DNA from: Nitrosopumilus sp.
GTDB taxonomy: Archaea > Thermoproteota > Nitrososphaeria > Nitrososphaerales > Nitrosopumilaceae
Direction: 5' to 3'
DNA: 64,000 nt
Assembly (NCBI GenBank): GCA_965218695.1
Contig: OZ244651.1
Location: 416,001 to 480,000 of the forward strand
Part shown: positions 27,138 through 32,074 of the stretch, piece by piece
Layout: the number at the start of each line of letters is the position of its first letter
Position numbering within the stretch: position 1 is the first letter of the stretch
Translations under genes and position numbers: made by a program
The notes under the pieces: model-generated
Seen by the model: the letters and a program-made list of their open reading frames with translations, nothing else
What the model was told of the DNA's origin: nothing
Database searches by the model: none

Positions 27138-27951
27138 CATCCCTCCTGCGATCCCATGTCGCTTTCTACTGCATCGCGAGCAGTTTAAGGGCATTCTGAA
27201 TCACATGGTATGGCTTGCGGCTTTCAGTTTTTTCAGGTATCCTGCCGTGTCGATGTCACTTCTGCACTCCAGATCTCCACGGAAATAATTGCGTATCGCC
27301 CTGTCCATCAGTTCCGACGCCCCCTCTATGGACTCGTGCGTGGCGCAGAACACCACGGCTCCATTTGGTGATGATGCTGTTTGGACTGCAAAGTGGAAGA
27401 ACATAAAACAGGAAATCCGGATCAAGATTTGCCTGTACAACCGCATGATGCGCGCATCACAGGAGCCAATCGCAATGACGTGAGGCAAAGATGCATCTTG
27501 CCATACTGTCTTGATCATGAAGGTGGAACTGTAGGGAGGTTGTGCAACTCCCATGTGTTACGGGTATCCAAACCCGTTGATGTCATGTGTTGGCAATACG
27601 TCTGATCCAGTCCGATTTGGGTTGGTCGGGCTGTTTTTTAAAGATTTGTGGGCAGGTTCGACGTAAATCGGATATTTTGATCATTATTGCCCCCGATCCT
27701 GCAGAATCCGATGCAAATGTCATGGCTCGTGTGCAGGTACAGGCAGGCGTTGCGCGCGGATTTGGATGAATGGCACACAGCTACCGCTAGGAATCTCTCC
27801 GTATCCGGAGGAAAAGCAGGCCAAACTCCTACAGTCAATATCGTTTTCGGCAAGCCGGAGGGGGACAAGAGGGGGCGTTGAGCCGCCCCTCATCTGTGCA
27901 GGGGCGGCAAAACGCACCCGGGGTTGTTTAATCTCCCCATGGCGCCCAGAC

Positions 27952-29019
27952 TCAGGATTCGGCGATGCGCTTTATTCTCTGGAATTTTCGTCTGACAAAA
28001 TCCCTGTCCTGGGTCCTGTACTCGGCGTCGTGTTCAAGCATCTCCCAGACCCATTCGAGCATCTGCCTGGCCACGGCAACCCTTGCCTTCATGGGCCCTA
28101 TGCGGGCTGCCAGTCTCTGGTAGCGTGCCCCTATCCGGGCATCGTGCCGGACTGCGACGAAGGCGGCCTCGACCATGGCGCGGCGCAGCCAGACAGAACC
28201 GCGCTTTGTGATGCCACCGGTCCTGACTGTCTCCCCGCTGTTGCGGTGTTTTGGCGCCAGGCCTGCATACGAGACCAGCTTTTCGGCGTTGGCGAACCTC
28301 TTGTGGTCGACTATTTCGGCAAGTATGGTTACTGCCGTGACGTATCCTATTCCGGGTATGGTCATGATCAGTCGTGCCCGCCTGTCGCTCATCGCAATCC
28401 CGGCTATCTTTTTTTCAAATTTTGACACCTGCTTTAGTATGGTGTCGATGATGGCTAGGTGCGACTGCACCGCCATGCAGTCAACCTCCCTCAGGGGCAC
28501 GTCCTGCAGCCACTCGATGCCCTGCTCCGTAAACAGCCCCCCTTTGGGCTGCTCGTGCGGGTATTTGGCCAGGATCGCGTGGATGCGGTTCTTGGGGCCT
28601 GAGGCGGACATCTTCATGTCCAGGCGGGTGCGGGTCAGTTCGCGCAGATCCCGCGCGGGCTTGTCGGCCACGAACGATTCGGGGATCATGTCCAGCCTGC
28701 ACAGGTCTGCCAGCTTTTCCGAGTCGGCCTTGTCGTTTTTGTACACGGTTTCGGTTATTATCTTCGTGTTGTGCGGGTGGGCCAGCAGGGTGTCGATGCC
28801 CGCATCCTCGAGCATGTCGTGCACGACTATCCAGTAGTTGGCCGTGGATTCGCAGACGGCCGTGGCCGGCACGTACCCTTCCTTGTGGATCATCTTGATG
28901 AATCCGGTTATTCCCCGAACGTTGTTGTCAAATTCAGTCTGCTTTAGTATGTCCTTGGTACTTCCCTTGATCGTTGTAACGCATTTCTTTTTGTGAACGT
29001 CTATTCCAACGTAATACGT
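27952..29019 (-). CDS. IS110-family DEDD recombinase (ACG at the expected start position)
   Basis: GIDVHK, CESTA, KNDKAD, IPGIG, YAGLAP..NSG; GGAGGTGA ribosome site followed by ACG-TAT-TAC. The ORF track extends to 29070. Confidence 0.9.
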   Translation of the reverse strand, partial: TYYVGIDVHKKKCVTTIKGSTKDILKQTEFDNNVRGITGFIKMIHKEGYVPATAVCESTANYWIVVHDMLEDAGIDTLLAHPHNTKIITETVYKNDKADSEKLADLCRLDMIPESFVADKPARDLRELTRTRLDMKMSASGPKNRIHAILAKYPHEQPKGGLFTEQGIEWLQDVPLREVDCMAVQSHLAIIDTILKQVSKFEKKIAGIAMSDRRARLIMTIPGIGYVTAVTILAEIVDHKRFANAEKLVSYAGLAPKHRNSGETVRTGGITKRGSVWLRRAMVEAAFVAVRHDARIGARYQRLAARIGPMKARVAVARQMLEWVWEMLEHDAEYRTQDRDFVRRKFQRIKRIAES

Positions 29020-29055
29020 GTTATCACCTCCTTTGCAGTGTATCGGACCCGACCA

Positions 29056-29160
29056 GCGGAAAACTCCCATTCACCGTCAAAGCGGTATTTGACCATCCGC
29101 ATACCTTGAGTCACTCTAACTAACGCCCTCATACGTGGCAAGTTGCACTCGACTCTCAGG
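29056..29160 (-). ncRNA. Predicted bridge/seek RNA of IS110 element A
   Basis: Two hairpins with internal loops. Segments GUGCAACU and UAGUUAG match the two flanks, and AUGGGAG matches the element end. Confidence 0.8.
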
Positions 29161-29264
29161 TCCAACAGGGTAAATGCCATGATCGCCGCTATAACGGCAA
29201 CACATGGCGTCTAACTACGTTCGCCACTACACGCTATGAAACAAATGATGCCCGAACCGGCCAT

Positions 29265-29346
29265 GAGTTTCCTACAAGACAGTCCAAAAATGAGGGCTAA
29301 GATTCATAGCTAAAACCACATTTTTGGACAAGTTTTTAGGAAAGTC
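29265..29346. other. att-like site, central (82-bp imperfect palindrome, core AGATTCATA)
   Basis: TTTCCTA..GTCCAAAAATG-AGGGCTA-AGATTCATA-GCTAAAACCA-CATTTTTGGAC..TAGGAAA; core at 29300..29308. Confidence 0.65.
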
Positions 29347-29585
29347 GCGTTTTGTTTTGGCGTCGTCGGATTCATTGCATGTAGTGCAACATGGCAGGAC
29401 TTAAACCCCTATGGGCAACAACGTGCCGCCTACCTGTCAAACATGGCTAACGTATACCAAAAGTGAAAAGTTGATGCGATTGTCACATATTTTACCACAT
29501 CTAAAGTTATACCAATTTCACGTCCCACAGTCAATGAAGATCAAGACGATGTTGAAAAGATACGCCGCTGAGACAGACTGCGATA

Positions 29586-30839
29586 TACCAAAAGTGAAAA
29601 GTTGATGCGATTGTCACATATTTTACCACATCTAAAGTTATACCAATTTCACGTCCCACAGTCAATGAAGATCAAGACGATGTTGAAAAGATACGCCGCT
29701 GAGACAGACTGCGATACCAAGGACCGCATGATGCTGATCATCAGAGTCAAACGTGATGGAATAACCATGAGGGATTCTGCAAAATCCCTGGGAAAGTCAG
29801 CCTCGTGGGGCTACAAGTGGCACGAGCGCTACCTGGAAGTCGGATTTGACAGGCTGGGAAACATGCCGCGCTCCGGCAGGCCGACCAAGGCGAGCAAGGC
29901 AGACATGAAGAAGATCAGAAAGGCCGCATGCAGGAAACCTGTCTGGACTGGCATGGAGATGCAGCAATACATCCAACAGAAGACCGGAGTGAAGTACGAA
30001 CTCGGATATGTGCGCCAGATACTGCGCGGGTGGGGCTATTCCCAAAAGGTTCCCGTAGGAAAACATGCAAGAAGGGCGCCTGACGAGGAGATCAGGAAAT
30101 TCCAAAAAGAGATGCCAGAGCTTATAAAAAAAAGAACAGTGAAGGAACAGTCGTAGCGATACAGGACGAGTCCATAGTAATCTCCGATGCGCGGCCGCGA
30201 AGACGCGGCTACACCAGGAAGGGAATACGGGCGTTTTTCACGTACACCGGCTCACACTCCAAGACGATAATCCATGGACTAATCACCACGGACGGCAGGG
30301 GCATGTTCCGGCAGTACGATGCGTTTACCAAGGACACCTTTGAGGACTTTCTAAGGCAGGCGATGTACAGGTTCAAGAAGATCTGCCTGATCATGGACAA
30401 GGCCTCCCAGCACAGGGCATCAAACATACGCAAACTGCTTGATGGCACAGACGGCCTGGAGATAATCTTCCTGCCAACTGCGACCCCGGACCTGAGCGCC
30501 ATAGAGACGTACTGGAGGGATCTCAAACGGGCAGTGCTTGACGTGCCGTACACCAGCCTGAGCATGCTCCGCGAGGCGATCACCAGGTACGCGAGGTACA
30601 AAAAACCAAATCTGGTAGTCGAGAATTTTCTGTACAGGGCCATCTAGAACGACATCAAACCACACCGGATCCACGCCGCCTAGCGTGTGCCATGCACGGC
30701 GCATCAGAGCATGCAATGTCTAATGTTCGGGGCGTCTTTTCTCGTCATTTGGGAATTCAACGCACCTCGTAATTTCCAGAGATGGATGTCGCATCAAAAA
30801 TTTATGAGCGATTTTGATATGAATTTTTCATTGCTGGTA
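29586..30839 (+). mobile_element. IS630-family element, inner intact copy
   Basis: TIRs TACCA..A.TGAAAA.TT.AT; TA duplication at 29584..29585 and 30840..30841. Confidence 0.9.
29665..30647 (+). CDS. IS630 transposase in two frames joined by a probable -1 frameshift at A8 (30126..30133)
   Basis: HTH part (RSGRP) ends at 30156; the -1 frame gives QDES, MDKASQH, PDLSAIE. Confidence 0.8.
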
Positions 30840-30982: not shown

Positions 30983-32074
30983 TCACTTCTGGCGCGCCCT
31001 TTTCATCTTGGCCAGCTTGCGTCTGTACAGTCTTTCGTTGTGTGACGAGTATATCGTCCTGGTATTGAGCATGTGCCATGCTATGGTGAGCATCTTGTTT
31101 GCCACCACCACTACGGCAGGCCCGTGCTTGTCTGCATGTCTCCTGCGTGCAGACTCGTATACTGCCGCCATCCTGTCATCATGCCGCACCGCGGTGTTTG
31201 CAGCCTCCATCATGGCCCAGTTGACAATTTTGTTGCGGTCAATCTTTTTTATCCTTCCAGTATACAGCTGGTTGCCGGACTGGTAGACTACGGGACACAT
31301 GCCTGCCCACGAGACCAGGTTTTTCGGGCTCTCAAACCTGGAGATATCCCCTATCTCTGCTGCAAGCAGCAGTGCGGTGTATGTTCCCAGACCGGTCAGG
31401 CTTGCAAGAATCTCTGCGTCCTCGTTTTGTGCCGCCTCCCTGTCAAGGCATTCGTCCATGACTGCTATCTCCTCGGTCAGGTTTCTCATCTGCCGGACGC
31501 ATTGCTGGAGCACCATCTCGTCATGTGCAGAGCCGAGGCCTGCGGATTCCAGCTGTTCTGTTGCCTTTGCAGAATACATATCAGTGGCCTCCACTGCCAC
31601 GTCATACCTGTCAAGCAGGGCGTGGACGCGGTTTATCACGCGCGTCCTGTCTTGGACGATCCTTATCCTCTGCCTGACCATCTGCCTTATCCCCCTGATG
31701 TTGGCAGGCGGCACGTAGCACTCGGGTATCATGTCCATCCTCAACACCTGTGCAATCTTCTCTGCATCCACCCTGTCTGTCTTTTTTCCTGTCTTTGTAA
31801 TTATGGCCATCTTGAACGTGTTGGCAAGCTTGATCTCTATTCCTGCACCCTCAAATGCGGCATATGTGATGTTCCACATGTTGCCCGTAGTCTCGCATGC
31901 CGCGCGGCATCCCCTGCGGGCGTACCTGCGTGCGGCCTTTTCTGCAAACTCCTTTGCGCTTGCTGCCGTGTTTGGGTACTGCCCTCGTTGGAGGACCTTC
32001 CCCCTTTTGTCGACCACGCACACGTCACACTTTTTCTTTCCGATGTCTATTCCTATGCTTATGTTTGTGTTCAT
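30983..32074 (-). CDS. IS110-family DEDD recombinase
   Basis: GIDIGK, CETTG, KTDRVD, LTGLG, WAGMCP..QSG; GGAGGTGA ribosome site. Confidence 0.92.
   Translation of the reverse strand: MNTNISIGIDIGKKKCDVCVVDKRGKVLQRGQYPNTAASAKEFAEKAARRYARRGCRAACETTGNMWNITYAAFEGAGIEIKLANTFKMAIITKTGKKTDRVDAEKIAQVLRMDMIPECYVPPANIRGIRQMVRQRIRIVQDRTRVINRVHALLDRYDVAVEATDMYSAKATEQLESAGLGSAHDEMVLQQCVRQMRNLTEEIAVMDECLDREAAQNEDAEILASLTGLGTYTALLLAAEIGDISRFESPKNLVSWAGMCPVVYQSGNQLYTGRIKKIDRNKIVNWAMMEAANTAVRHDDRMAAVYESARRRHADKHGPAVVVVANKMLTIAWHMLNTRTIYSSHNERLYRRKLAKMKRARQK

Follow-up and report, generated by a model that had tools for sequence, protein, structure and literature searches.

An IS110-family insertion sequence of Nitrosopumilus sp. 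with a predicted bridge/seek-type RNA encoded upstream of the recombinase gene

Guide RNAs of insertion sequences (ISs) have been described as bridge RNAs for IS621 of the IS110 group (Durrant et al. 2024, PMC11208160; structures 8wt6-8wt9) and as seekRNAs for ISEc11, ISPa11 and ISKpn4 of the IS1111 family (Siddiquee et al. 2024, PMC11187229). Bridge/seek RNAs have been shown experimentally in a handful of bacterial elements. Archaea are mentioned just in passing in the portions of both papers drawn upon here, and the part of a preprint used for comparison counts 662 archaeal IS110 recombinases (10.1101/2024.06.21.599552). Here we describe element A, an IS110-family insertion sequence on the minus strand of a 64,000-nucleotide stretch of the genome of Nitrosopumilus sp., an ammonia-oxidising archaeon of the Nitrosopumilaceae (the window, G000:C1:416001-480000; coordinates preceded by C1 refer to the same genome). 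It covers 1661 bp (27550..29210) between two CT core dinucleotides and is one of three full-length copies in the genome (A, B and C). Element A very probably encodes, upstream of its recombinase gene, a bridge/seek-type RNA of ~110 nt that specifies the target as well as the element's own ends. The predicted RNA has the following features, listed in the direction of the recombinase gene:

29054..29163, minus strand: core of the predicted bridge/seek-type RNA, composed of two stem-internal loop-stem modules (covariance model R1, 120.3 bits, E 4.6e-22)
29150..29155, minus strand: outer stem of the target module, 5' arm GAGUCG, pairing with UGACUC at 29108-29113
29141..29148, minus strand: guide GUGCAACU on the 5' strand of the target loop, identical to the plus strand at 27542..27549 (8/8)
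29124..29140, minus strand: inner hairpin of the target module, UGCC ... GGCG (97.7% of cells paired)
29116..29122, minus strand: guide UAGUUAG on the 3' strand of the target loop, reverse complement of 29211..29217 (7/7)
29096..29100, minus strand: outer stem of the donor module, 5' arm GCGGA, pairing with UCCGC at 29056-29060 (92% of cells paired, little variation)
29091..29094, minus strand: guide GGUC on the 5' strand of the donor loop, which complements bases 2-5 of the element, beside the upstream core
29072..29087, minus strand: inner hairpin of the donor module, UACCG ... CGGUG (96.3% of cells paired)
29064..29070, minus strand: guide AUGGGAG on the 3' strand of the donor loop, reverse complement of 27548..27554 (7/7)

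Element A resembles IS621 in its DEDD recombinase with a Transposase_20 domain, in the location of the RNA upstream of the recombinase gene, in the two internal loops, one for the target and one for the joined element ends, and in guides of 7-8 nt including the CT core, each loop reading both DNA strands that flank it. One difference lies in the strand order: in element A the 5' loop strand complements the sense strand and the 3' loop strand the antisense one, whereas the 5' side of IS621 pairs with the bottom strand (PMC11208160). With this reversed order, element A departs from the IS110 group in the narrow, IS621-like sense. In addition, the sub-terminal repeats are of 9 bp instead of 2-3 bp, the 5' donor guide is of ~4 nt and leaves the core uncovered, the conserved RNA core is of ~110 nt against the 150-250 nt given in the passages compared, and the proteins are distantly alike (E 2e-18), the host of element A being archaeal. 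The order found in element A is that of the seekRNAs, in which the complement of the top strand lies 5' of the complement of the bottom strand (PMC11187229). Further common points are sub-terminal inverted repeats, the GL-P----SG protein motif, natural reprogramming among relatives and a size near the 70-100 nt of seekRNAs. The RNAs of IS1111 elements are, however, found downstream of the gene for the transposase, whereas the guides of element A (29064-29148) are upstream. By sequence, the guide order and sub-terminal repeats of element A are thus of IS1111 type and the position of the predicted RNA gene is of IS110 type. The likeness to IS1111 is one of guide order, repeats and motif. This layout is already on record, as the relevant part of PMC11187229 reports a long non-coding region upstream in the IS1111 relative ISMtsp17 and on both sides in ISHvo10 and ISAcp5; the likeness to these three concerns the position of the non-coding regions alone, without sequences, RNAs or guides.

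Guide strands and the flanks of each copy

The three guide matches of 8/8, 7/7 and 7/7 that a preliminary description of this locus had reported were found as given, with all its strings and coordinates present. GUGCAACU is complementary to the element-sense strand of the core and distal flank, UAGUUAG is the upstream flank and core read in element orientation, and AUGGGAG is made up of the distal element end ATGGG and the core AG. In 300000 mononucleotide shuffles of the 105 nt from 29160 to 29056, the 8-mer occurred 388 times and the 7-mers 2780 and 4293 times, while the three together occurred in none.

Matches to the 183-nt upstream end were found in 25 of 401 sampled genomes of the same family, the own genome included, and in 8 of 27 genera. 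Forty homologous upstream (5') ends, for which extra DNA was fetched, were aligned and contain 36 distinct guide combinations. Across these relatives the scaffold is constant, and the strands of the first loop change with each copy's own flanks. For the 3' target guide, the five bases before AG were compared with the upstream flank of the same copy, after removal of three ends with an unalignable 5' boundary (L049, L006 and L075) and collapse of identical pairs. The 33 distinct pairs agreed at 148 of 165 bases (5/5 in 20 of them, 4/5 in nine and 3/5 in four), with a cross-pair mean of 1.6 of 5, and none of 100000 permutations was as good. Comparison of the 5' target guide depends on the distal end, which was assignable for 21 of the 40 relatives by the GGGAG motif together with at least 7 of 11 sub-terminal repeat bases; L078 and L075 were dropped as doubtful, and the remaining relatives are truncated, lie at contig ends or have no recognisable distal end in the fetched DNA. 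In the best of five registers, 91 of 120 bases agreed over 20 distinct pairs, the cross-pair mean by the same rule being 2.9 of 6; again, 0 of 100000 permutations reached this score. The clearest case is that of element A, with GUGCAACU beside TTGCAC, and of two copies of another genome, which have CACGAACU beside TTCGTG (8/8). Within the genome of the window, the upstream ends of A and C are identical at 120 of 125 positions (96%) outside the target guides and at 7 of 15 positions inside them.

The third guide strand that covaries with the DNA is the 5' strand of the donor loop. When compared with element bases 2-5 after omission of five of the 40 ends (L049, L006, L075, L035b and L073), it agreed at 47 of 64 bases over 16 distinct pairs, and no permutation out of 100000 was as good. 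This strand does not reach the core. As AUGGGAG is nearly invariant in the family, covariation cannot test the 3' donor guide.

According to the proposed mechanism, GUGCAACU would pair with the element-sense strand of the core and distal flank and UAGUUAG with the opposite strand of the upstream flank and core, so that both strands of the target loop would specify GTGCAA-CT-AACTA. The donor guides AUGGGAG and GGUC would recognise the ends of the element as abutted in an excised circle. The DEDD recombinase with its bound RNA would then exchange strands at the CT core, and the circle would thereby enter another IS at the tip of its terminal inverted repeat. That the RNA would be made, bound by the recombinase and direct recombination is proposed by analogy with IS621 and the seekRNAs of the IS1111 family.

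Structure and strand of the predicted RNA

The structure was drawn by hand and scored on 32 sequences, the controls being partners slid by 1-3 columns and shuffles. Overall, 79.9% of the cells were paired versus 34-44% with slid partners, and 110 cells showed two-sided changes versus 49.5 in the shuffles. The outer and inner stems of both modules were 89.5-97.7% paired; so were helices 2, 3 and 5, in which 10 of the 18 pairs change on both sides. The outer stem of the target module, which had first been described as CCUGAGAGUC (29160..29151) with GACUCAAGG (29112..29104), has compensatory changes in 4 to 10 sequences for each of the pairs 61-66/143-148, and a G.U pair that is invariant in 32 of 32 sequences; an extra CCU/AGG stem that closes this module is less conserved (moderate). 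The inner hairpin of the target module carries additional hairpin insertions in its terminal loop in three sub-lineages. Three pairs of the inner hairpin of the donor module show compensatory changes, in 12, 7 and 2 sequences. RNAalifold proposed a long-range helix between CCU and the GGG of the donor guide, which was rejected in favour of the CCU/AGG closing stem.

Three G.U pairs are retained in 32, 31 and 31 of the 32 sequences, and their equivalents on the plus strand are C-A mismatches. Accordingly, the structure is that of a minus-strand RNA, the minus strand being that of the recombinase gene.

A covariance model of the 110-nt core gave five matches in this genome, corresponding to A, B, C and two orphan fragments. 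Among 151 sampled genomes of the phylum, it gave matches in four including the own genome, with three of 19 in the same family and none in the 131 searched from 33 other families, which does not amount to absence there. The two orphans (C1:747541-747698 and C1:754861-755006) are RNA modules 79% identical to that of A without a recombinase gene behind them. The former retains the upstream junction and a matching 3' guide (TCAAA), and the donor guides are degenerate in both.

A further hairpin was predicted by folding at the upstream end of the element (29176..29208). Merely 58.9% of its cells are paired across the family, so that it is not established; it may be either a 5' stem-loop of the RNA or a DNA feature with a TATA-like box (29189-29194). 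Another hairpin (ACGGGT-loop-ACCCGT, 27560..27577, minus strand) was seen directly inside the distal sub-terminal repeat, and was judged by eye to be kept with other stem bases in L028, L037 and L040.

Contigs from four sequencing runs of one study were also inspected. Their commonest differences in the RNA region sit on guide positions (29091, 29094, 29141 and 29148). Changes at 29091 and 29094 yield the AGUG donor variant of the Cenarchaeum-type relative, and insertions or deletions occur at the edges of the 5' target guide. Over the conserved scaffold, the contig depths add up to a very high value, which indicates that many related elements are present in those samples. Over 27200-29600, these contigs held many related copies, no circle joint and no empty-site joint. 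Likewise, a 20-mer of the circle junction had no match in metagenome_contigs and a 22-mer none in the own genome and the fetched loci, and assemblies rarely contain circles.

Element limits, recombinase and target site

The ends of element A, its recombinase gene and the flanking target DNA comprise the following features:

27369..27549, plus strand: fragment of another IS, here called IS 'H' (last 181 bp), sharing 88-94% identity with the ends of C1:2317066-2318396 and C1:1713435-1714213
27542..27547, plus strand: left target half GTGCAA, adjoining the recombinase-distal end; 6/6 with the 5' strand of the target loop
27548..27549, plus strand: left core dinucleotide CT, at both junctions of A, B and C
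27550..27951, minus strand: downstream non-coding end of 402 nt, with a poorly conserved middle
27551..27559: sub-terminal inverted repeat of the recombinase-distal end, CCATGTGTT, partner at 29199-29207
27952..29019, minus strand: recombinase coding sequence, 355 aa if begun at ACG (29019-29017), which is aligned with the ATG of the relatives
29023..29032, minus strand: Shine-Dalgarno-like sequence AGGAGGTGAT, conserved in the family 5-7 nt before the start codon of the relatives
29176..29208, minus strand: folded hairpin at the upstream end, with the sub-terminal repeat in its 5' arm and the loop TTAT(AG)
29199..29207: sub-terminal inverted repeat of the upstream end, AACACATGG on the plus strand
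29211..29212, plus strand: right core dinucleotide CT, at both junctions of A, B and C
29213..29217, plus strand: right target half AACTA, with which the inverted repeat of IS 'H' ends

Copy C (C1:1720105-1721763) shares 86% identity with A and lies between unrelated flanks. Its alignment with A starts and stops at the CT dinucleotides 27548-27549 and 29211-29212, i.e. from 27548 to 29212, which confirms the element ends 27550..27559 and 29201..29210. The left boundary beyond the stop codon, which the preliminary description had predicted from the guides, is thereby borne out, and the sub-terminal repeats it had cited as independent support were found at 27551..27559 and 29199..29207. These repeats are of 9 bp and lie 1 and 3 bp inside the cores, within the 7-17 bp of IS1111 elements. 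In line with the site-specific insertion of the IS110 family, a short core, CT, is found at both junctions of A, B and C, without long target duplication and without terminal inverted repeats. In the relatives, AG, which is the same core in element orientation, is present at the upstream junction in 35 of 37 tabulated elements; in L066, GG replaces AG at the distal junction and the flank is unmatched.

Copy B (C1:2318390-2321501) is 100% identical to A over 1542 bp and 192 bp and is split by an insertion of 1.43 kb. The break point lies between the RNA module and the Shine-Dalgarno sequence. The inserted IS (L002:3000-4480, C1:2319884-2321314) encodes a 386-aa transposase with an rve (integrase core) domain and is flanked by a duplication of ~15-16 bp (equivalent to 29026-29041 of the window).

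The recombinase matches the Pfam families DEDD_Tnp_IS110 (PF01548, 69.5 bits, E 3.6e-19) and Transposase_20 (PF02371, 99.2 bits, E 1.8e-28), as well as NCBIfam NF033542, 'IS110 family RNA-guided transposase' (241.8 bits, cut-off 140). The closest solved structures are the IS621 and ISCro4 transposases, each with E ~1e-18 (E 2.3e-18 for IS621 in PDB entry 8wt6). The GID, cESt, kNDkaD and nSGe stretches align opposite the motifs of IS621 in 8wt6, with D, E, D, D and the serine of SG present; we take these residues to be catalytic. A motif AGLAPKHRNSG fits the GL-P----SG of IS1111. The closest relatives among public proteins come from metagenome-assembled genomes (MAGs), at three loci with 86-88% identity under the title Nitrosopumilus sp. 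and with 68% identity under that of Cenarchaeum sp., in agreement with the archaeal origin that had been proposed for the element. A tblastn search against plasmids for the subgroup gave 3907 records, all of less than 60% identity and named merely with the generic 'IS110 family transposase'.

The listed open reading frame (ORF) of the recombinase (27952-29070, minus strand) is open over 372 aa and begins at an ATG (29070-29068) which is the AUG inside the donor guide AUGGGAG and the sole in-frame ATG upstream. In the relatives, the start is an ATG located 5-7 nt downstream of the conserved AGGAGGTGA, and in the L038 sub-lineage the frame from the donor-guide AUG reaches a stop after five codons. 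On the basis of both observations, the recombinase is probably 355 aa long. ACG (29017-29019) stands in place of the ATG of the relatives in A, C and three copies of another genome, that is in five copies of two genomes.

The predicted target of element A is GTGCAA-CT-AACTA, or GTGCAACTAACTA. By sequence comparison, element A has inserted in IS 'H' at the tip of the terminal inverted repeat: this repeat, the end of which reads ...GTTGTGCAACTAACT, ends as ...GTTGTGCAACT at the left junction and resumes as AACTA at 29213-29217. An intact H of 1331 bp, with a 354-aa transposase of Pfam family DDE_Tnp_1, is located at C1:2317066-2318396. Copy B occupies one of its repeats, and the other has a perfect, unoccupied 13-mer at C1:2317065. 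A 12/13 site at C1:1714202 is also an inverted-repeat tip of H; it belongs to a shorter deletion copy of 780 bp (C1:1713435-1714213, beside a tRNA gene), of which one end carries this site and the opposite end a half-site. The target deduced earlier thus recurs in the genome as a perfect unoccupied 13-mer and a 12/13 site. IS4321 and IS5075, of the IS1111 family, reportedly have a fixed insertion position within the terminal inverted repeats of a different transposon family, to go by the title of a 2003 article by Partridge and Hall. Judged by that title, the location of element A in the inverted-repeat tip of a DDE_Tnp_1 IS is comparable, whereas the hosts differ, being Tn21-family transposons in one case and a 1.33-kb archaeal IS in the other.

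A sequence of 49-56 bp from ~29450 (29450-29500) recurs with 96-100% identity at at least 14 places in the genome and is followed by two ORFs, 29602-30156 and 30303-30647, which resemble a split transposase; the region from 29450 to about 30650 is probably the end of another multi-copy IS. Other IS110-family recombinase genes, 26-33% identical to that of A, were found in the window (30995-32062, minus strand) and at ~12 places in the genome. As the covariance model had no match beside these genes, they should carry different guide RNAs.

Alternative explanations and significance

Several observations count against a guide RNA encoded by element A, or against its present function. The minimum free energy (MFE) fold of the 105 nt is -29.7 kcal/mol, with z = -0.62 and 49 of 200 shuffles as good (z = -2.21 for the 183-nt piece). 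The two hairpins with internal loops of the preliminary description (29160..29056) therefore rest on covariation in the relatives, which upholds them, and not on folding energy, which does not. A search of Rfam 15 over 27400-29400 with E up to 10 returned a chance lncRNA match alone, and Rfam may lack a bridge RNA model. The runs listed with the element sequence are the four mentioned above, all present as contigs, and none is an RNA run. In A itself, GGUC pairs at 2 of 4 bases in Watson-Crick fashion (3 of 4 with G.U), so that the 5' donor guide is weak as noted earlier, though better placed at GGUC (29094..29091) than at the AUGG originally proposed. The distal ends were located partly by GGGAG, and the constancy of the partner of the 3' donor guide is thus partly built in. 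Four of the 20 pairs of the 5' target guide fit poorly (L062 and L035 at 2/6, L040 and L052 at 3/6). The other copies in the genome, the flanks of which had been expected to fit the guides, do so in part: in C the 3' target guide fits at 7/7, but the 5' guide CACGAACU stands beside GATCTT and fits at merely 3/8. A TTCGT that fits this guide sits 7 nt beyond the expected place, for which the chance is roughly estimated at ~5% within ~12 offsets, and no conclusion was drawn from it. A and B are identical from 27500 onward, and thus agree in 48 nt of the left flank and in the AACTA of the right one; sharing their flanks, they were not counted as independent insertions. Finally, the ACG start, the interrupted copy B and the frameshifted copy C, in which a 2-bp deletion leaves the protein match in two pieces, make present-day activity uncertain.

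These last points would be expected if the element were a dead relic, in which RNA module and guides are real fossils and copy A is no longer mobile. The ACG after the Shine-Dalgarno sequence in five copies, the rve-type IS within B, the deletion in C and the perfect target left unoccupied at C1:2317065 all agree with this view, which we regard as possible but doubtful. The complete identity of A and B over 1542 bp and 192 bp suggests that copying took place recently, the upstream ATG opens an uninterrupted 372-aa frame and the catalytic motifs align with those of IS621; moreover, an ACG common to five copies in two genomes has been retained and is no fresh lesion. The fold energy and the lack of an RNA run would in turn suit an explanation without any guide RNA, the matches being DNA-level protein-binding sites or recombination footprints, and both ends do carry sub-terminal inverted repeats and hairpins of the kind found in DNA. 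We consider it very improbable, as compensatory changes accompany the covariation of the stems, 31-32 of 32 sequences retain three G.U pairs that can form only in a minus-strand RNA, the hairpin insertions fall in a terminal loop, and characterised family members use such RNAs, as described in the portions of PMC11208160 and PMC11187229 cited here.

Equally improbable is a functional guide RNA in the 402-nt downstream end, as is typical of IS1111, with the upstream module in a secondary role such as that of a regulatory leader. It would be in line with the IS1111-type sub-terminal repeats, the length of the downstream end and the report of diverged relatives of IS1111 that have a long non-coding region on each side (PMC11187229). 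However, the middle of the downstream end (27641-27879) shows no more than 62.2% identity when A is aligned with C (24 gap columns), and this poor conservation indicates that the downstream end is probably not the guide RNA gene. In the close relative L058 the distance between these ends is shorter by 321 bp, the whole element measures ~1290-1330 bp in other sub-lineages, and all guide-flank covariation found maps to the upstream module, the downstream end itself not having been searched for guide-like matches. An upstream-encoded bridge/seek-type RNA is therefore the explanation we retain, and the earlier reading of element A as a compact archaeal RNA-guided recombinase finds support in the sequences, through the guide-flank covariation of the relatives and the protein family.

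The element thus adds a well-supported, yet expected, new member with a mixed IS1111/IS110 layout, in an archaeal family, to the bridge/seek RNAs, and it leaves the known principle unchanged. Among the papers listed by the literature searches, none describes an RNA of this kind in ammonia-oxidising archaea; archaeal or upstream-RNA members of IS1111 may already figure in Supplementary Table 5 of PMC11208160 and Supplementary Fig. 2 of PMC11187229. More tentatively, element A could represent an archaeal lineage of RNA-guided recombinases, so far found only in the family of the window, that combines IS1111-type chemistry, in guide order and long sub-terminal repeats, with a minimal upstream bridge RNA of ~110 nt under its own internal archaeal promoter. 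The promoter candidate would be a conserved TTAT(A) box (29189-29194), which precedes the first stem by ~25-30 nt; integrated copies, besides the excised circle, would then give rise to the RNA, and the donor loop would read ~4 nt on one strand, without the core. This lineage would then be a naturally reprogrammed system of 36 guide combinations working with archaeal transcription, and a distinct architectural variant to set beside IS621 and ISEc11.

In any case, some 36 guide combinations on one conserved scaffold, each next to its own target, amount to a natural experiment within one archaeal family. The mixed layout bears on how the RNA gene moved between element ends, and the compact scaffold with its natural guide-target pairs may be of practical use for testing the rules of recognition.

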